From the NCBI GenBank assembly GCA_964539075.1, contig CAZIFU010000057.1:22153-86152 (forward strand): 64,000 nt of DNA, in the 5' to 3' direction. Source of the DNA: an uncultured Verrucomicrobiota bacterium. GTDB lineage: Bacteria; Verrucomicrobiota; Verrucomicrobiia; Limisphaerales; CAZIFU01. The notes under the pieces were generated by a model that did not search any database, had not been told where the DNA came from, and saw nothing but the letters and a program-made list of their open reading frames with translations. Made by a program: the position numbers and the translations under genes. This document shows positions 2,073 through 60,906 of this stretch, piece after piece. Each line of letters begins with the position of its first letter. Positions within the stretch are counted from its first letter, which is position 1.

Positions 2073-3455
2073 TTAAGAAAGCCCCGGCAACTTGCCGGTG
2101 CTGTCGCCCACGCGCTCGGCGGCGACGCCCATCCGCTCCAGCATCGAGAGGTAAAGATTGGTCATTGGCAACCGGTCGTTCAGCTTCAGGTGGCGCCCGG
2201 GCTTGATCGTGCCCCCGCCCCGGCCCGCCAGCAAAATGGGCAGTTCATCATGGCGATGCCGGTTGCCGTCGCTGATGCCACCACCGTAAACAATCATGCA
2301 ATGATCCAGCAACGTGCCCCCGCCTTCCGGCGTGGCTTTCAGTTTTTTCAGGAAATAGGCGAATTGCTCCACGTGAAAACGGTTGATCTTCGCGATCTTT
2401 TCCTTCTTCTCCGGGTCGTTGCCGTGATGGGAAAGATTGTGGTGGCCGTCGGGCACGCCCAACTCCGGATAACTGCGGTTGCTGCCGTCGTGCGCCATCA
2501 AAAAAGTCGCGATGCGCGTGGTGTCGGTCTGGAACCCCAGCGCCATCAGGTCATACATCAGGCGGACGTGCTGCGCGAACTCCGCCGGAACACCCGTGGG
2601 CTTGTCGAAGTCCGGCAGGGTCGCGGCGAACTTCTCGGCCTGCTCGATGCGCTGCTCCATCTCGCGGATGGCGGCGAGGTACTCGTCAAGCTTGCGGCGG
2701 TCGGTGGCGCCAAGACTGGCCTTCAAGCGATTGGCGTCTTCGAGCGCAAAATCCAGGATGCTCTTCTGATAACGCTCGCGGTGCGACTGGCTTTCCTCGG
2801 CTTCGCTCTTGTTGCCGTTGCCAAAGAGCCGCTCGAACACCTGACGCGGGTCTGTTTCCGGCGGCATGGGCGTCGAGGCCGTCTTCCAGGAAAAGTTGAA
2901 CTGGTAGGCGCAACTGTAACCGGAATCGCACGAGCCGGTCTGACGCCCGCGGTCGCAACTCAATTCCAGCGACGGCAGCCGCGTCCGCCTACCGGCCACT
3001 GCGGCGGCGATCTGGTCCACGGAGACGCCGATGCGGATGTCTGCGCCGGCGGTTTTGCGCGCCTGGCAGCCGGTGAGGAATGTGGCGTTCGCGCGGGCAT
3101 GATCGCCGGCGCCGTCGCCGTTGGACCGGGCCTTGTCGTGGGCCAGGCCGCTGATGACCATGAAATCTTTTTGCACCGGCTTGAGCGGCTCCAGAGTGGC
3201 GGGCAATTGGAATTTGGCCCCGACGGCCTCGGGGGTCCAATGCTCCATGATGACGCCATTGGGGATATAGACAAACGCCATGCGATTGGGGAACGCCTTG
3301 GCGGCAGCACCGGCGCCGGCAGCCAGCGCCTTGAGCGACGGGACCATCGCGTCGAGCATGGGCAGGGCGATGGTGGTGCCGAGTCCCCGCAAAAAGGTCC
3401 GGCGCGGTATTTGCCAGGTTTTGTGCATATTCCGTTTAATAGACGCTCGACCCAA
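2073..3455 (-). CDS. DUF1552-like protein with TAT-type signal (PVC-group family)
   Basis: ORF 460 aa. N-terminus RRTFLRGLGTTIALPMLDAM, then FVYIPNGVIMEHWTPE and GDHARANATFLTG. The family assignment is from memory of DUF1552 consensus, not a search. Confidence 0.7.
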   Translation of the reverse strand: MGRASIKRNMHKTWQIPRRTFLRGLGTTIALPMLDAMVPSLKALAAGAGAAAKAFPNRMAFVYIPNGVIMEHWTPEAVGAKFQLPATLEPLKPVQKDFMVISGLAHDKARSNGDGAGDHARANATFLTGCQARKTAGADIRIGVSVDQIAAAVAGRRTRLPSLELSCDRGRQTGSCDSGYSCAYQFNFSWKTASTPMPPETDPRQVFERLFGNGNKSEAEESQSHRERYQKSILDFALEDANRLKASLGATDRRKLDEYLAAIREMEQRIEQAEKFAATLPDFDKPTGVPAEFAQHVRLMYDLMALGFQTDTTRIATFLMAHDGSNRSYPELGVPDGHHNLSHHGNDPEKKEKIAKINRFHVEQFAYFLKKLKATPEGGGTLLDHCMIVYGGGISDGNRHRHDELPILLAGRGGGTIKPGRHLKLNDRLPMTNLYLSMLERMGVAAERVGDSTGKLPGLS

Positions 3456-3629
3456 TGCGCATCTTCAACGAAAGACGGTGATTACGCCTGCAAGGTAACA
3501 ATCGGCGGGGAGAAAGCAACCGCGAAGTCAGAACGCCTGGGGCGTAGAAAGTTTAACTGGCGAGGACACCCCGGCTTCATACCCTTGAAAGTTTTCACAC
3601 AGGCTCGCGCGGTGTTACGCGGCGACGGT

Positions 3630-4100
3630 TCAATTCCGTCGCGGAATAGCGATTGTAACCACATAATCGGCTGAACCGTTCGGCGAGTCACAAAGGTAGA
3701 GGTCGAAACCGTCTGCCGTTCGTTCGAGCGCGGTTATATCACGCCCTTTGCGTTTCACGATCCACGCTCTGGTCAAATCCAATCGGCCGCTGAAATCGCG
3801 CCAGACGGAAGGTGTGCGGTCCAAGTTGGTCCAAGGTTCGCCGTCAAAGGTGACATCCGTCGGTGGCGACCATTTCTTGTGTTCATAACGCACAGTGCGG
3901 CTGGTGAAAATGATCCGTCCGCTTCCATCTACCTTGGCAGTTATGCGAAGCAATTTCAGATATGCATCGGATGAATCTTCGGATGTCGTTGCGATTTTGC
4001 CTATGTTCGACTTGGTAGCCGCATCAGTTTTCTTAGAGGTGATGCAGCCACACAAGCTGAAACAAACTACCAAGACCAAACCGAGTTTTAGTATTTTCAT
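3630..4100 (-). CDS. Hypothetical lipoprotein
   Basis: ORF 3630..4139. Internal start MKILKLGLVLVVCFSLCGC gives a signal peptide plus lipobox Cys. Locally lower GC than the flanks. No recognisable family. Confidence 0.6.
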   Translation of the reverse strand: MKILKLGLVLVVCFSLCGCITSKKTDAATKSNIGKIATTSEDSSDAYLKLLRITAKVDGSGRIIFTSRTVRYEHKKWSPPTDVTFDGEPWTNLDRTPSVWRDFSGRLDLTRAWIVKRKGRDITALERTADGFDLYLCDSPNGSADYVVTIAIPRRN

Positions 4101-4289
4101 GGCATATCCTTTCCATTTGCGTTTTTGATTTTTGGGCATGTGATAGTCATCAGGCGCTGCCGGCTAACGGACGAAAGTTAGGCCACTCAGTTCTGTGGCC
4201 CTAATAGTTTACTTCTTTTGCGGTGGGAGCAGTCTATGCCCCTGTGGCTGTCGAGCAAGCGTTGTTTTGGGCAGGAATGAGGCCGCCAG

Positions 4290-54494: not shown

Positions 54495-55157
54495 ATGAAA
54501 GGTTATTTCGCCGTTTGGCGGGCCAATTTCTATGCCGGCCTGGCCATCGTGCTGCCCGCGGTGATTTCCCTCGCGGTAGTCAAGTGGCTCTTCGGCACCG
54601 TTTCCAATGTCACCGACGCGCTGCTTTTTTTTCTGCCCAAAGACCTGACCCACCAGGCGGCCGGGACGGGATCGATGCATTGGTATTGGAGCCTGGCGGC
54701 GCTGGCGCTGGCCGTGCTGCTCATCGGCTTGATCGGCCGGTCGGCCCGCAATTACCTCGGCAAAAAAATGATCCGTCTCGTGGATGCCTTTTTGCTGCAC
54801 GTGCCGTTGCTCAACAAAATTTACGGCGCCATCAAGCACGTCAACGAAGCGTTTACTTCAACCGATAAATCATCCTTCAAGACCGTCGTGCTGGTGGAAT
54901 TTCCGCGCCCCGGCCTCTACTCGATCGGCTTCATCACCAGCGAGCAACATGCCGAAGTGCAGGCCCGGATGAAGGAGAAAGGGGTTTGCGTGTTTGTCCC
55001 CACCACGCCCAATCCGACCTCCGGTTTTCTGCTCCTGGTGCCGGAAGAAAAAGTCACCAAGCTCGAGATGTCCGTCGCCGACGGGATCAAATACGTGATG
55101 AGCCTTGGCTCGATTGCGCCGGACTACGCGCTGCCGGACAAAAAGCTGAAGGACTGA
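54495..55157 (+). CDS. DUF502 family membrane protein
   Basis: ORF 220 aa: two N-terminal TM helices, VVLVEFPRPGLYSIGFIT, PTTPNPTSGFLLLVP. Confidence 0.8.
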   Translation: MKGYFAVWRANFYAGLAIVLPAVISLAVVKWLFGTVSNVTDALLFFLPKDLTHQAAGTGSMHWYWSLAALALAVLLIGLIGRSARNYLGKKMIRLVDAFLLHVPLLNKIYGAIKHVNEAFTSTDKSSFKTVVLVEFPRPGLYSIGFITSEQHAEVQARMKEKGVCVFVPTTPNPTSGFLLLVPEEKVTKLEMSVADGIKYVMSLGSIAPDYALPDKKLKD

Positions 55158-55197: not shown

Positions 55198-55292
55198 ACA
55201 TCCAACATCCAACATCCAACGCCCAACATCCCATGGTTGGGCATCCGGACGTTCATTGGGAATTGGATGTTGGATGTTGGATGTTGGATGTT
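55198..55292. repeat. Heptamer-array inverted repeat (AACATCC x4 facing TTGGATG x4)
   Basis: aacatccaacatccaacatccaacgcccaacatccca ... tgggaattggatgttggatgttggatgttggatgtt. Ends 8 nt before the recO ATG. Confidence 0.85.
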
Positions 55293-55299
55293 CATTGCG

Positions 55300-55929
55300 A
55301 TGATCGAGTCCGCCACCGGCCTGATTCTGCGCACCCGACCGCTGACGGAGACCAGCCTCATCGTGCAGTGGCTCACGCCGGAGTTCGGACGCCTCGCCAC
55401 CGTCGCCAAAGGCGCGCGCCGGCCCAAATCTCCCTTTCTCAGCAAGCTCGATTTGTTTTATCTCGCCGATTTCAGCTTCTACCGCAGCCGCCGCTCCGAT
55501 TTGCATATTTTAAGTGAAGTGAGCCTGCGCGACACGAATGCCGCGCTGCGCCAGGACCTCGCCCGTCTTCAGCAAGCCGCCTACGGCACCACGCTCATCG
55601 AGCAGACCACCGAGACGGATACGCCGCTGGCGGGAATTTTCGGGTTGATGAGCGGTTTTTTGAAACATCTGGTGGAACAACCGCCGCGACCGCAAACCCT
55701 TTTCGCTTTTGAAGTGAAACTGCTCGCGGAACTGGGGCTGCAACCCAGGCTGGACAAGACCTCGCTTACGCCCGGGGCCCGACAAATCGTTGAAAAGCTG
55801 GCCGGCGCCGATTGGCCCGCGATTGGCCGCCTGAAACTCAGCGAGGCGCAAACCACCGAACTGCGCCAGTTCCTGCACGGATTTTTGATTTTCCACCTCG
55901 GTAAGATTCCAAAAGGGCGAAGTCTTTGA
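55300..55929 (+). CDS. recO: DNA repair protein RecO
   Basis: ORF 55237..55929. The first 21 codons translate the heptamer repeat. Start MIESATGLILRTRPLTETSLIV at 55300. Confidence 0.85.
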   Translation: MIESATGLILRTRPLTETSLIVQWLTPEFGRLATVAKGARRPKSPFLSKLDLFYLADFSFYRSRRSDLHILSEVSLRDTNAALRQDLARLQQAAYGTTLIEQTTETDTPLAGIFGLMSGFLKHLVEQPPRPQTLFAFEVKLLAELGLQPRLDKTSLTPGARQIVEKLAGADWPAIGRLKLSEAQTTELRQFLHGFLIFHLGKIPKGRSL

Positions 55930-55961
55930 CCGTTCATTTTCGCCGGGAAAAGCGGAGGAGG

Positions 55962-56048
55962 GCCACCGCACTCCAGGACGCTGACGCGCCATCTGCCGCT
56001 CCCGAAGTGCGCGAAGCGTCTTGGAGTGCGCCAGCCCTCTGGCGCTTT
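55962..56048. repeat. Rearranged partial copy of the long-hairpin repeat (outer arm halves only)
   Basis: cgcactccaggacgctgacgcg and gcgtcttggagtgcgccagccctctggcgcttt match the outer parts of 1665-1744 and 5974-6053 but lack the loop. Confidence 0.7.
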
Positions 56049-56219
56049 TAAGATGCACGAGTTTTATCCAGCTTTGTTGGTCGCATAATCAAACTTCAAG
56101 AAGATTAAAGACGCGTGCAAAACAAACTGGCTAACGGTCGCGGAAAGGATTTTGCAAATGAGGGACGGATCGGCGGGAAATAACTTTGCGTAGAGCGCGA
56201 ACGCTGATACCTTGCCAGC

Positions 56220-56717
56220 ATGAAATGGGAACAGCTTTGTGACGACAAAACCCTCGAAGGGATTCCCTACCGCGTCGAGCTTACCCGCAACGGTCAACTC
56301 GTTATGAGTCCACACCGAAGCTACCACAGCATTTACCAGAGCCGGATCATACGCTGGCTGAACAGTCTGTTGCCCGACGGCGAGGCGATGCCGGAGTGCC
56401 CCATCGCAACCAATGTCGGCGTGATCGTGGCGGACGTGGCGTGGGCGTCGCCAAAGAAAGTGAAACGCAACTTCGATCTGCCGAACTGGTCAGAATCGCC
56501 GGAAATCGTCGTGGAAGTCTTGTCCCCGTCGAACGCCGGCGACGAAATCCGCAAGAAGCGTGAAGCCGTCTTCGCCAAAGGCGCTGCGGAATTTTGGATC
56601 TGCGACCGAAATGGCACGCTGCAGTTTTTCGACCCGCGCCGACGGCTGGCAAAATCGCGGCTTTGCCCGAAATTCCCCGGCAGCGTGGCTACGCCGCGTT
56701 CGAACTCACGCCACTGA
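56220..56717 (+). CDS. Uma2 family (DUF820) PD-(D/E)xK endonuclease
   Basis: ORF 165 aa: VADVAWAS...PEIVVEVLSPSN...AAEFWICD. Confidence 0.8.
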   Translation: MKWEQLCDDKTLEGIPYRVELTRNGQLVMSPHRSYHSIYQSRIIRWLNSLLPDGEAMPECPIATNVGVIVADVAWASPKKVKRNFDLPNWSESPEIVVEVLSPSNAGDEIRKKREAVFAKGAAEFWICDRNGTLQFFDPRRRLAKSRLCPKFPGSVATPRSNSRH

Positions 56718-56767
56718 ACGAACGCTCGCGAGTGACCCCCGGCAAACGCGCTCCTCGAAGGCAGCAT

Positions 56768-56947
56768 CTACGGCGTGGCGGTAGCACTCCGCGAAGTAAT
56801 GCCCGCGCAAAAACGCTGGTGCAAATCACCCAAAGCATAGTGGTATTCCTGTTTGCAACGCTTCCATTCGCTGCTCAAAGGATCGAGGTGGTTGGCGAAT
56901 CGGTCGTAGAGCGCGGCCAGCCGGGCCAGTTCCGCCGGCGGAATCAT
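56768..56947 (-). CDS. Small hypothetical ORF (59 aa), ATGA-coupled to the upstream interrupted ORF
   Basis: My translation: MIPPAELARLAALYDRFANHLDPLSSEWKRCKQEYHYALGDLHQRF.... Below the ORF-track size cutoff. Coding status uncertain, and the 3' end may be frameshifted at a T5 run. Confidence 0.3.
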   Translation of the reverse strand: MIPPAELARLAALYDRFANHLDPLSSEWKRCKQEYHYALGDLHQRFCAGITSRSATATP

Positions 56948-57276
56948 GCGTAGAGCGCCAGCATCTCGGACGCGGCATGGCGAATCTCCAGGATGCGGTC
57001 CAGTGAAGGATGAACGCCGGAATGTTTCGTGGCCAGGCTCTGGACGCGTTTGGCGGCGCGGTCAATAACATCGAGAGTTTCACGCCAGACGGCGGCCGCG
57101 CGCGCCATTTCCTGCTCGCGTCGAACCGCTAGAACGGCGAAGCGGTAGAGCGAGAGGAGAAAGTTCTCAATCTCCGCCAGTTGCGCGTCGAACTGGTCTT
57201 CCGTCGTGCGGCTGAGTTATTCCAGCGCTTCTTCGTTGGCGCTGCGCAATTCCGACAATTCCAAGGTCAACGTCAT
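56944..57276 (-). pseudogene. Small helical-protein ORF interrupted by an in-frame TAA (57217-57219)
   Basis: My translation: MTLTLELSELRSANEEALE*LSRTTEDQFDAQLAEIENFLLSLYRFAVLAVRREQEMARAAAVWRETLDVIDRAAKRVQSLATKHSGVHPSLDRILEIRHAASEMLALYA. Protein-like on both sides of the stop. Confidence 0.4.
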
Positions 57277-57392
57277 GGTGGGAACATTACGCCGGTAATC
57301 AGGCTCAGGCAAGTAGCTGATCTAGTTCGGCAACAGATGCCTTGCGCTCTTGGTAATGTTCGGTTGGCTTGAGCACGTCGAAAGGTTTTGGC

Positions 57393-58187
57393 TTAAAGTT
57401 CGTCCTCTCGCAGGAAATCAATCTTAATGCGGTAGTATCGTATGGAGATATTCGGGTTGGACTTTACCGCATAGGTCAAGTTCTTGTCTTTTTCGTGGGA
57501 CAAAATTAGGCCGAAGACCTTTTGCGAACCTGCAAGCTCCTCCATCACCCAGCCAAGGTAACGGCTTAGTTGACCGACCACAGAATCGGAGACTCTTTGC
57601 TTTTTTAGTTCTTGCACCAAGAAATCTCCATTCGGTCGTACGCACAATAAGTCAATTGGCCCGACATCCGTTGGGTACTGGCGGCCATCACGACCATTAT
57701 CGTCAACAAACAGTCGAAGGCCCGGCTCAACCAGATGAAGGTTTGCAGCGATGAAATCTTCGACCTGTCGTTCCAATGCCAAAGGAATCGTGACCGACGC
57801 CTTGACGGTTTGCGGAGCAACCGCTTCATCTCCGTCAGCGGCCTTCTCGCTTTCAACTTCGGCTATATCCACCTGCGCTTGTTGCGTCATCGAGATTGGT
57901 ACGAGTCGTACGACGTGACGGCCATCGACCATTTCCTGGGGGTCATATTTCACCAGAATCTTTGTCCCTGGAGTGATGTTGTTCTTTACAAACCATTCAG
58001 CGCATTGAGTCAGTTGATTGGCGTGGTGGCGTTTCATGTACGACTTCCGACCGTTGCCATCAATTACGGCAAGAATCGTTTTGTGCTCCCCGAATTTGCT
58101 TCCGTACCGAGTTCCGTAATCGTCCGTCAAGTTGATGTATTGCGCGGAGACTTCCGATCCATTTTGCAGGTGTTCAAATTCAATCAT
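57393..58187 (-). CDS. NucS/DUF91-like PD-(D/E)xK nuclease domain fused to an unrecognised ~110-aa N-terminal domain
   Basis: ORF 264 aa. C-terminal LERQVEDFIAANLHLVEPGLRL...PTDVGPIDLLCVRPNGDFLVQELKKQRVSDSVVGQLSRYLGWV...VFGLILSHE. Clearly lower GC than the flanks. Confidence 0.7.
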   Translation of the reverse strand: MIEFEHLQNGSEVSAQYINLTDDYGTRYGSKFGEHKTILAVIDGNGRKSYMKRHHANQLTQCAEWFVKNNITPGTKILVKYDPQEMVDGRHVVRLVPISMTQQAQVDIAEVESEKAADGDEAVAPQTVKASVTIPLALERQVEDFIAANLHLVEPGLRLFVDDNGRDGRQYPTDVGPIDLLCVRPNGDFLVQELKKQRVSDSVVGQLSRYLGWVMEELAGSQKVFGLILSHEKDKNLTYAVKSNPNISIRYYRIKIDFLREDEL

Positions 58188-58232
58188 AGGTCGTCCCTGG
58201 GATTTGTCTTCGAGCGGCTCAACGCGAAACCG

Positions 58233-58343
58233 TTACGCGCGGTGGAGCGCAGTATCGGCTAGTGTCTCCGGCTCAACCCACTTCCCGTGTTCACGGATCA
58301 AATCCACGAGGCGTTCCACGGCTTCGGGGTTAAATCGAGTCAT
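58233..58343 (-). other. Displaced duplicate of the ispG 3' end (36-codon remnant ORF)
   Basis: MTRFNPEAVERLVDLIREHGKWVEPETLADTALHRA. 58268-58326 is about 92% identical to 59012-59070, and the shared 19 residues EAVERLVDLIREHGKWVEP are identical to the IspG C-terminus. Confidence 0.8.
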
Positions 58344-58519
58344 GCCGCGAGAGCCGCACGCTTTCGGTGAGTCGTTCGTTTGGGGGCATGAACCAGCCGT
58401 TTGCCGGCCTTGGCTTCCTCACCCCGTACCAACGTGGCGAGCCGTTTCAAATCATAACCACATTCCGCCCCGATTTCATCGCGCACGCGCCAGACTTCTT
58501 TCAACAGATTGTTTTTCAT
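58340..58519 (-). CDS. Small protein (59 aa) downstream of the PIN gene, putative partner/antitoxin
   Basis: My translation: MKNNLLKEVWRVRDEIGAECGYDLKRLATLVRGEEAKAGKRLVHAPKRTTHRKRAALAA. Lies 7 nt after the PIN stop. Its stop overlaps the remnant ATG (ATGA). Confidence 0.5.
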   Translation of the reverse strand: MKNNLLKEVWRVRDEIGAECGYDLKRLATLVRGEEAKAGKRLVHAPKRTTHRKRAALAA

Positions 58520-58526
58520 AAGCAGA

Positions 58527-58974
58527 TTATAGCATCAATTCAAAGGGCGTGCAGATGACGGGCGCAGGGTAGCCCGCCGCTGTGCAGGCCGCACGCACTT
58601 TGTCCACAATGGCAGCGTTGGCAATGTGCCGGCAATTCCAGGTCAACAGAAAGTCCATCCGATGAACCGCCGCCACCGCGATGTGCGCCGCATCTACCGC
58701 CGCCCTGGCAGGCATCAAGCGAGTCGCAAGAATTCTGCGCGCCAAATCCTGCGCCGCCGGTGAATACTCGAGAACTTTACAGCCCGCTAAAACTTCATCC
58801 CTCGCCGTCGCCGCCGAAGCATCGCCCCGGCGCGACTCCGCCAGCACGAGGCCAGACACGAAAAGCTGGTAGTGTTGCCGCCGTTCGTCCCACCAATCGC
58901 GCGTGGCCTGTTGTTGCCCGGCAATCAAAACATCACGACTGGGCCAGGCCGTCAAGAGACTCGGAATCGTTGTT

Positions 58975-58997
<23 letters not shown>
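58527..58997 (-). CDS. PIN-domain (VapC-like) toxin
   Basis: ORF 156 aa: VYLETTIPSLLTA...DAAHIAVAAVHRMDFLLTWNCRHIAN. The first 23 nt overlap the end of ispG. Confidence 0.75.

Positions 58998-60902
<1,905 letters not shown>

Positions 60903-60906
<4 letters not shown>

Follow-up and report, generated by a model that had tools for sequence, protein, structure and literature searches.

A B3-like head joined to a NucS-type nuclease in an uncultured Verrucomicrobiota bacterium, a candidate solitary restriction endonuclease

Single polypeptides that join a DNA reader to a nuclease are known among phage restriction systems. In END-Mag, which targets hypermodified G, a NucS-like nuclease is fused to an iEndoIII reader and restricts phages with modified G, and McrB proteins carry this reader too (PMC12191111). 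In the Menshen systems, B3-like heads are listed as sensor domains (PMC12065111). According to a published rule, a reader joined to an HNH or PD-(D/E)xK nuclease with no methyltransferase nearby points to a modification-dependent enzyme (PMC6765204). Our literature search turned up no paper in which a B3-like domain is combined with NucS. Here we describe such a combination in a 64,000-nucleotide stretch (the window) of contig CAZIFU010000057.1 from an uncultured Verrucomicrobiota bacterium, in which a single gene, the nuclease gene, encodes a protein with a B3-like N-terminal domain, referred to as the head, and a NucS-type C-terminal domain (Table 1). An initial annotation of the window had described the gene as a low-GC (guanine plus cytosine) fusion of a NucS-type nuclease with an unrecognised N-terminal domain, lying in an islet of nucleases and toxins, and had likened it to Shedu defence proteins. 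Our analysis leads us to read the protein as a solitary restriction or defence nuclease, with a probability of about 0.5, that is probably Type IV-like; its dependence on DNA modification specifically is a more tentative proposal.

The open reading frame (ORF) list agreed with the initial annotation on a single gene of 264 amino acids (aa) and on the sequence quoted for it, and public data contain a protein identical to its product (P0001). The C-terminal half of the protein matched the Pfam family NucS_C (PF01939) over aa 139-232 with 37.8 bits, against a cut-off of 24. When the protein was aligned with NucS of Pyrococcus abyssi, D179 (in IDLL), E193-x-K195 (in QELKK) and Q206...Y210 (in GQLSRY) fell on catalytic positions, as expected from the NucS-type layout that had been noticed initially. 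The 23 full-length homologues are 44-58% identical and 252-293 aa long and have a common two-domain layout. In the alignment of 24 homologues D179 is invariant, and E193, K195, Q206 and Y210 are each retained in at least 90% of the sequences, with truncated sequences as the only exceptions. The full-length AlphaFold2 model consists of two well-folded domains (mean predicted local distance difference test score, pLDDT, 85.6), and its best Foldseek matches were EndoMS (5gke) and NucS (2vld), with E about 1e-6. The nuclease half was also matched by the PADLOC model of PDC-S02 (PDLC04824; E=2.9e-30; profile positions 173-305 of 308). PDC-S02 is an unvalidated single-gene candidate of PADLOC, and the likeness to it is limited to this half; in the window protein the B3-like head stands in place of the first 170 positions of the model. 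The C-terminal half is thus a PD-(D/E)xK nuclease domain of the NucS type in which all catalytic residues are preserved. Between the two domains, residues 101-130 had a pLDDT below 50 and appeared disordered in the model; the linker of which they form part contains 7 D/E vs 2 K/R, differs in length and sequence among homologues and is rich in gaps in the alignment.

The window protein resembles NucS/EndoMS, the mismatch endonuclease of archaea and actinobacteria, in the D...ExK...QxxxY set of its C-terminal domain, in a NucS_C score above the cut-off and in its best fold matches, as well as in having two domains and a length of about 250 aa. On the other hand, its N-terminal domain is a predicted B3-like pseudobarrel, and the N-terminal dimerisation and mismatch-binding domain of NucS gave no Pfam match in the window protein. 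The gene is accessory, low in GC and patchy in distribution, whereas NucS is a housekeeping protein. Orthology with NucS was rejected on the basis of this domain content and of the scores for the NCBIfam equivalog models NF003270 (41.2 bits, cut-off 216) and NF002876 (30.4 bits, cut-off 252).

The head yielded no match at the sequence level. Searches with 16 members gave no Pfam match below E=0.1, the B3 family PF02362 was not matched by the window protein or by 16 homologues, no chain in the Protein Data Bank (PDB) was found at E<=10 even when a profile search was included, and PHROGs returned nothing usable. The head modelled alone with AlphaFold2 had a pLDDT of 96.8 and the element order b1-a1-b2-b3-b4-b5-a2-b6-b7, forming a seven-stranded open barrel with two helices that is superposable on B3 domains. 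When this model was compared with the PDB by Foldseek, ranks 1-24 were all B3 domains, with template modelling (TM) scores of 0.55-0.69 normalised to the query. Among these best 24 were FUS3, At1g16640, VAL1, TEM1, NGA1, LEC2, ARFs and VRN1, together with the N-terminal head of Helicobacter LlaJI.R1 (6c5d). EcoRII-N, NgoAVII-B3 and BfiI-C followed, and the full-length Foldseek search was concordant. In addition, two distant relatives had sub-threshold scores for Pfam B3, namely P0041 (28.9 bits, cut-off 30.1) and P0112 (19.2 bits, E=1e-3). Based on the fold matches and these sub-threshold scores, the head is, as modelled, a divergent prokaryotic B3-like pseudobarrel. The initial statement that the domain is unrecognised is therefore valid for the sequence, with no Pfam or PDB match, and does not hold for the fold; its pairing of a reader or sensor domain with a NucS-fold nuclease in one gene agrees with the domain models. 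The most conserved residues of the head, N19-L20-x-D22, G25, G29, H35, D43, G46-R47, H54, N57-Q58 and W65, concentrate in the b2 region, the b2-b3 loop and the b4-b5 loop. In the model these regions would be the topological equivalents of the DNA-contacting N-arm and C-arm in EcoRII-N and BfiI-C.

The head family has no Pfam entry and is rare. Since a word-indexed search with the head profile gave only short fragments and stand-alone heads, an exhaustive search was needed; among 1.84 billion representative proteins it recovered 128 clusters only (E<=1e-3). A NucS-type C-terminal domain is present on about 15 representatives of these clusters. Other nuclease partners of the head are HNH or HNH_2 (P0049, P0065, P0072, P0087, P0103, P0120), PD-(D/E)xK domains of the HSDR_N type (P0054, P0091, P0097, P0158) and a NOV_C PD-(D/E)xK domain (P0051). 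The head is also joined to McrB-like AAA_5 GTPases (P0077, P0090, P0132), to Mrr_N (P0052), DpnI_C (P0145) and HARE-HTH (P0117), which are DNA-binding modules, to the C-terminal domain of RNA polymerase alpha (P0099) and to a sigma-54 activator (Sigma54_activat) with HTH_8 (P0074), and it occurs in tandem copies (P0041, P0042). Both P0077 and P0090 are genuine homologues of McrB; the search that retrieved them also brought up McrB of Thermococcus gammatolerans (PDB 6UT3). Their genes lie immediately upstream of McrC with no methyltransferase nearby. The island of P0090 (L149/L150) also contains Argonaute (PAZ + Piwi), an SbcCD-like ATPase/phosphoesterase pair and a superfamily-1 helicase. The head signature YLNLTD...YG..FP...NQIWG.L..W is retained in all effector classes, which suggests that the heads may share one common ligand rather than having diversified sequence specificities. 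The head is a shuffled module of restriction enzymes, and from its fusion partners we infer that it binds DNA.

No methyltransferase was found in any Pfam-annotated neighbourhood of the window gene or its homologues. Likewise, no ORF of at least 150 aa with methyltransferase motifs was found within ±10 kb at 13 loci in a screen that used a crude regular expression without a positive control. Since the gene lacks a methyltransferase, the same head also occurs on McrBC and HNH enzymes without one, and its signature is invariant, a Type IV-like mode is favoured. Two marks of such an enzyme are present, namely the lack of a linked cognate methyltransferase, within the limits of these two screens, and a modular reader common to other Type IV chassis (McrBC, HNH). 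In the mechanism that we propose, the B3-like head would be the DNA reader and the linker a flexible acidic tether. The head would sense a feature, most plausibly a base modification, that foreign DNA has and host DNA lacks, and would recruit or release the nuclease. The nuclease would probably act as a dimer, by analogy with NucS and most PD-(D/E)xK restriction enzymes. Mg-dependent cleavage by D179/E193/K195 with Q206/Y210 of the NucS-type domain would then cut the DNA nearby, so that phages or other mobile DNA would be restricted.

By analogy with described systems, the window protein would work most like a modular restriction endonuclease whose domains are ordered as in EcoRII, whose head is of the LlaJI/McrB type and whose chassis is that of END-Mag. 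As in EcoRII, a Type IIE restriction endonuclease, a B3-like N-terminal domain is followed by a PD-(D/E)xK C-terminal domain, and EcoRII-N is among the fold matches of the head. In contrast to EcoRII, the window protein is about 140 aa shorter, has no Pfam match to EcoRII-C and is not adjacent to a Dcm-type methyltransferase; membership in the EcoRII family was rejected because the EcoRII-C match and the neighbouring methyltransferase are missing. LlaJI.R1 and the McrB family join a B3-like or other reader head to an AAA+ GTPase that is accompanied by McrC. The head of LlaJI.R1 is among the best fold matches, and the head family of the window protein is itself present on McrB beside McrC. However, the window head is fused directly to a nuclease, without a GTPase motor or McrC, and LlaJI has cognate methyltransferases, whereas no methyltransferase was seen at loci of the window family. 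END-Mag is similar in architecture in that one polypeptide combines a reader with a NucS-like PD-(D/E)xK domain and the reader is shared with McrB-type GTPases, whereas that reader has an inactivated EndoIII/Ogg1-like glycosylase fold and the window head a B3-like one (PMC12191111).

The composition of the nuclease gene is distinct from that of the window. Its GC content is 0.492, against a mean of 0.614 (standard deviation 0.029) for 795-bp windows, and every other 795-bp window is higher, in agreement with the drop in GC that had been noted over exactly this gene. At third codon positions (GC3) the gene has 0.543, most neighbours have 0.66-0.80, and the 59-aa ORF of the PIN cassette upstream has 0.567. 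Because the GC and GC3 of the gene lie below those of its neighbours, the dip is limited to the nuclease gene. The repeat search detected no repeats flanking the nuclease gene itself, the single strong repeat being the one that brackets the PIN cassette. In the promoter scan, the sole -10-like hexamer near the gene was uninformative, since it overlaps the start codon. Horizontal acquisition as a single-gene cassette is the best explanation for the gene. The only other patch of the window with GC near 0.50 (about 3350-4270) holds an ORF of 169 aa (3630..4139, -) with a lipoprotein-like signal sequence, adjoining an ORF (2073..3455, -) that is DUF1552-like by eye. A DUF1552-like ORF, together with the Verrucomicrobia hosts of homologues, gives a loose hint of a host from the PVC group.

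Full-length relatives were found in archaea, in Archaeoglobaceae and another archaeon, and in bacteria, in Limisphaerales, Verrucomicrobia subdivision 3, Acidobacteria (Acidiferrales, Terriglobia), Bacteroidota, a deltaproteobacterium and a bin labelled Bifidobacteriaceae; in this bin the gltX context is the same as at the Verrucomicrobia loci. At every locus the GC of the gene was lower than that of the locus, for example 0.458/0.590, 0.481/0.601, 0.462/0.613 and 0.348/0.425. The gene lies directly after gltX in three Verrucomicrobia (L004, L006, L008), where it is 70-77% identical vs 86-93% for GltX and the two orders of relatedness disagree. It lies near uvrB in an acidobacterial-type lineage (L056-L061), in which the flanks of L056 and L059 are 99.6% identical and the nuclease genes only 94.4%. 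Toxin-antitoxin genes adjoin homologues, as seen from Pfam matches to RelE/HTH, DUF3368 and PIN/Phd, and HigBA-like, DUF4160 and MNT-like nucleotidyltransferase neighbours were recognised by eye from translated ORFs. The closest relative of the window protein is a truncated copy of 182 aa that is 58% identical (P0018, locus L152:6513-8549). It is situated just after an integrase at the edge of a small integrative element that contains an excisionase-like HTH protein, a Toprim primase and an AAA_25 helicase-type protein, and P0017 has an integrase fragment and a RelB-like gene alongside. At a Terriglobia locus (L014:10001-10764) the nuclease gene is split into ORFs of 164 aa and 84 aa, which points to a frameshift or a pseudogene, or else to an error of assembly. 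The initial annotation had named uniform linkage of homologues to housekeeping genes as grounds for giving up a defence role; since the homologues lie in unrelated, accessory and low-GC contexts, these grounds do not apply.

Comparison with relatives, covering loci L067-L146, placed the nuclease gene in a variable islet between ispG and recO. In 80 metagenomic relatives, whose IspG is 62-84% identical, rseP-ispG is accompanied by convergent recO and then by a conserved 220-aa ORF (54495..55157 in the window), and none of these 80 close relatives carries the B3-NucS gene. The site is empty, with an ispG-recO gap of about 50-160 bp, in L073, L081, L088, L093, L106, L080 and L109, and is occupied by other toxin or defence cassettes in L067, L068, L094, L138, L071 and L069. 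The cargo at the site includes a MazF/PemK toxin (L067), AbiEii-like nucleotidyltransferases (L094, L079), an AAA_15 ATPase with DUF3226 (L071), a MUG113/T5orf172 protein (L069) and, detected by tblastn, Uma2 alone in the same place as the window Uma2 (L075). As the site is empty or differently filled in relatives, the islet is a hot spot at which toxin and defence cassettes accumulate, with the nuclease gene as a lineage-specific insertion. The nuclease and toxin islet proposed initially was thus borne out and is variable, relatives with IspG 76-84% identical having either an empty site or other cassettes.

The remaining cargo of the window islet was also clarified. The PIN gene upstream and the convergent Uma2 gene, both named initially, had Pfam matches. 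The PIN cassette is indeed present, and is a separate insertion of 742 bp. It lies between two 62-nt direct repeats (58266-58327 and 59008-59069), which are 92% identical to each other and are duplicates of the ispG 3' end. The ancestral ispG stop, at the end of the relic tail, is located 45 nt upstream of the nuclease start codon. L071 and L087 have the same PIN cassette and ispG relic at the same site, and the arrangement suggests that the end of ispG is the target of a toxin-antitoxin cassette or the place through which such a cassette is exchanged. Two small ORFs downstream, as reported initially, are present as well, and have been corrected to one of 110 aa and one of 59 aa. The former is intact in the contig of another sample (L001:1048-1380), and in the window a CAA-to-TAA change at codon 20 leaves an ORF of 54 aa. 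Neither ORF of the pair had a Pfam match, and the pair is not conserved beside homologues. Right after the recO stop there is a 35-nt inverted repeat (55948-55982/56015-56049, 80% complementary, 32-nt loop), maybe a terminator or an element like a repetitive extragenic palindrome (REP).

Table 1. Positions in the window of the nuclease gene, the parts of its product and the features of the surrounding islet.
Feature	Position	Strand	Remarks
Nuclease gene, B3-like head + NucS-type nuclease	57393..58187	-	264 aa; ATG start; stop codon 57393-57395 (ORF list)
N-terminal domain, aa 1-98, predicted B3-like DNA-binding pseudobarrel	57894..58187	-	AlphaFold2 model and Foldseek; signature YINLTD...YG..F...NQ(I/L)..W
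Acidic disordered linker, aa 99-132 (about 34 residues)	57792..57893	-	pLDDT and alignment gaps
C-terminal domain, aa 133-264, predicted NucS-type PD-(D/E)xK	57396..57791	-	Pfam NucS_C, Foldseek, PADLOC
Predicted catalytic core	57558..57653	-	D179 57651-57653; E193 57609-57611; K195 57603-57605; Q206; Y210 57558-57560
Variable islet, 3.05 kb	55930..58974	.	Between convergent recO (55237..55929, +) and ispG (58975..60906, -)
PIN (58527..58997) + 59-aa ORF (58340..58519) cassette	58340..58997	-	Pfam PIN 25 bits; separate insertion, context only
Relic of ispG 3' end, 36-aa ORF	58233..58343	-	Contains repeat copy 58266-58327; called as a 36-aa gene in L002
Downstream pair, 110-aa ORF (56944..57276) + 59-aa ORF (56768..56947)	56768..57276	-	4-nt overlap
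Convergent Uma2-family PD-(D/E)xK gene	56220..56717	+	Pfam Uma2 53.4 bits

Several observations weigh against a solitary restriction or defence nuclease with a DNA-reading, modification-dependent head. The characterised prokaryotic B3-like heads (EcoRII, BfiI, NgoAVII and LlaJI.R1) all read unmodified sequences and come with cognate methyltransferases (PMC3973309, PMC12191111), and the check for methyltransferases was local, so that an unlinked one may exist, and included a motif screen without a positive control. With 12 K/R vs 11 D/E, the head is not basic. In P0074, a protein of 511 aa, it fills the N-terminal sensor slot of a sigma-54 enhancer-binding protein, so the head may bind something besides DNA in some contexts. 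A representative of PDC-S02 has been tested once in print, with T4, T5 and T7, and was not listed among the protective systems. No phage or viral relatives were found in IMG/VR by a pattern scan or in GenBank phages by tblastn; the head alignment was too variable to supply a pattern for viral sequences, and a fold search of BFVD gave a single unnamed match. Full-length relatives were essentially absent from plasmids, where the matches were nuclease-domain relatives annotated as 'endonuclease NucS domain-containing protein' and a hypothetical protein of Burkholderia with 25% identity, whose gene context was uninformative. Some copies of the gene have decayed, that of L014 being frameshifted and that of P0018 truncated. 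Finally, the defence function is one that we infer, for a family whose members are so far known from sequences and models.

An alternative that shares the domain architecture with our reading is a Shedu-like or abortive-infection effector, whose N-terminal domain would auto-inhibit the nuclease until an infection cue (DNA ends, replication intermediates or a phage protein) releases indiscriminate DNA degradation, with no reading of modification. Shedu (SduA, DUF4263) is likewise a single gene with a variable-type head and a NucS-clan nuclease, and SduA is a weak structural neighbour of the window protein. A head and a NucS-clan nuclease on a flexible linker, a nuclease half that matches the PADLOC candidate PDC-S02 and gene neighbourhoods rich in toxin-antitoxin genes are all consistent with such an effector, as is auto-inhibition of the nuclease by the B3-like head of EcoRII (PMC2770665). 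However, the N-terminal domains of Shedu are variable, whereas the window head is a conserved B3-like module, highly conserved within its family and common to McrB and HNH enzymes, in which DNA reading is the classic task. No match to DUF4263 (Pfam) or to the Shedu models of PADLOC was found at E<=0.1, and SduA (8ps5) ranked only 27th in Foldseek with E=0.11; Shedu membership was rejected on these grounds. The Shedu-type architecture invoked by the initial annotation is thus an analogy only, and we consider an effector of this kind rather unlikely.

A selfish homing-type endonuclease or addiction gene, which would cut a rare site in genomes without the gene and spread by repair copying beside conserved genes with no benefit to the host, is likewise an unlikely account. 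Its appeal lies in the position of a single low-GC gene right downstream of ispG in the window and of gltX in the three Verrucomicrobia, and near uvrB in the acidobacterial-type lineage. The divergence of the gene between nearly identical flanks in L056 and L059, the incongruence between gene and GltX relatedness and the decayed copies in L014 and P0018 also point in this direction. On the other hand, the gene at the gltX site has been kept in three species-level genomes with its catalytic residues intact, no flanking repeats or target duplication surround the nuclease gene, and the family is absent from the phage and viral collections searched. In addition, the domains to which the head is fused, McrB with McrC, Mrr_N and DpnI_C, come from restriction systems and not from homing endonucleases.

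We also considered an orphan Type II or IIE-like enzyme, in which the head, the nuclease or both would read an unmodified sequence while the host is shielded by an unlinked methyltransferase or by the rarity of the site. The domain order of EcoRII fits such an enzyme, as do the unmodified sites read by all characterised bacterial B3-like heads (PMC3973309, PMC2770665). However, neither the screen of 13 loci nor the Pfam-annotated neighbourhoods contained a methyltransferase. The reader residues are near-invariant across phyla and effectors, whereas sequence-specific restriction enzymes usually diversify, and the transfer of an unprotected Type II enzyme as a single gene would presumably be lethal. 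We judge this possibility quite unlikely.

A Type II toxin-antitoxin system, with the nuclease as a toxin neutralised by a small upstream antitoxin, is suggested by the loci L056-L058, in which a gene for a 91-aa MazE/PrlF-like antitoxin (L056:7739-8014) overlaps the nuclease start by 14 nt, and by the frequency of toxin-antitoxin genes among the neighbours. In the near-identical L059, however, this gene is replaced by 93 unrelated bases, and it is also missing in the window and at other loci, where gltX, an MNT-like nucleotidyltransferase, DUF4160 or the ispG relic is found upstream. Because the antitoxin-like gene is not conserved, the toxin-antitoxin hypothesis was rejected as very improbable. 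Least probable of all is a housekeeping repair nuclease, that is, a diverged NucS/EndoMS with mismatches or branched DNA as its substrate, since its support from NucS_C, the intact catalytic set and the EndoMS/NucS fold matches is opposed by the missing NucS N-terminal domain, equivalog scores far below their cut-offs, the patchy distribution, low GC, islet location and absence from all 80 close relatives, and a tail (...IKIDFLREDEL) that, like the family consensus, has no obvious QxxLxxFF-type clamp motif by reading, with no formal motif search.

The reading of the window protein as a solitary, probably Type IV-like restriction or defence nuclease has implications for the head family as a whole. 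The YLNLTD/NQIWG pseudobarrel could constitute a new B3-type class of readers for modified or non-self DNA, and the first modification-dependent B3-like domain, defining a new Type IV family on NucS-type, HSDR_N, NOV_C, HNH and McrBC effectors in bacteria and archaea; we put this forward as a possibility that is still doubtful. If the head reads modified DNA, a compact reader of about 100 aa would join SRA, EVE/YTH/ASCH, DUF3427, NEco, the winged helix and iEndoIII, and such readers serve as epigenetic tools and in predicting which phages can be restricted. The fold of the plant B3 transcription factors is linked by this family to a wider pool of prokaryotic restriction heads than EcoRII, BfiI, NgoAVII and LlaJI. 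In addition, the label 'endonuclease NucS domain-containing protein' can mask accessory enzymes of the defence type that are not mismatch-repair NucS, and the ispG-recO junction is a clean natural case of a micro hot spot that gathers single-gene toxin and defence cassettes. Above all, the window nuclease is of interest since it may reveal a new class of readers for Type IV restriction.

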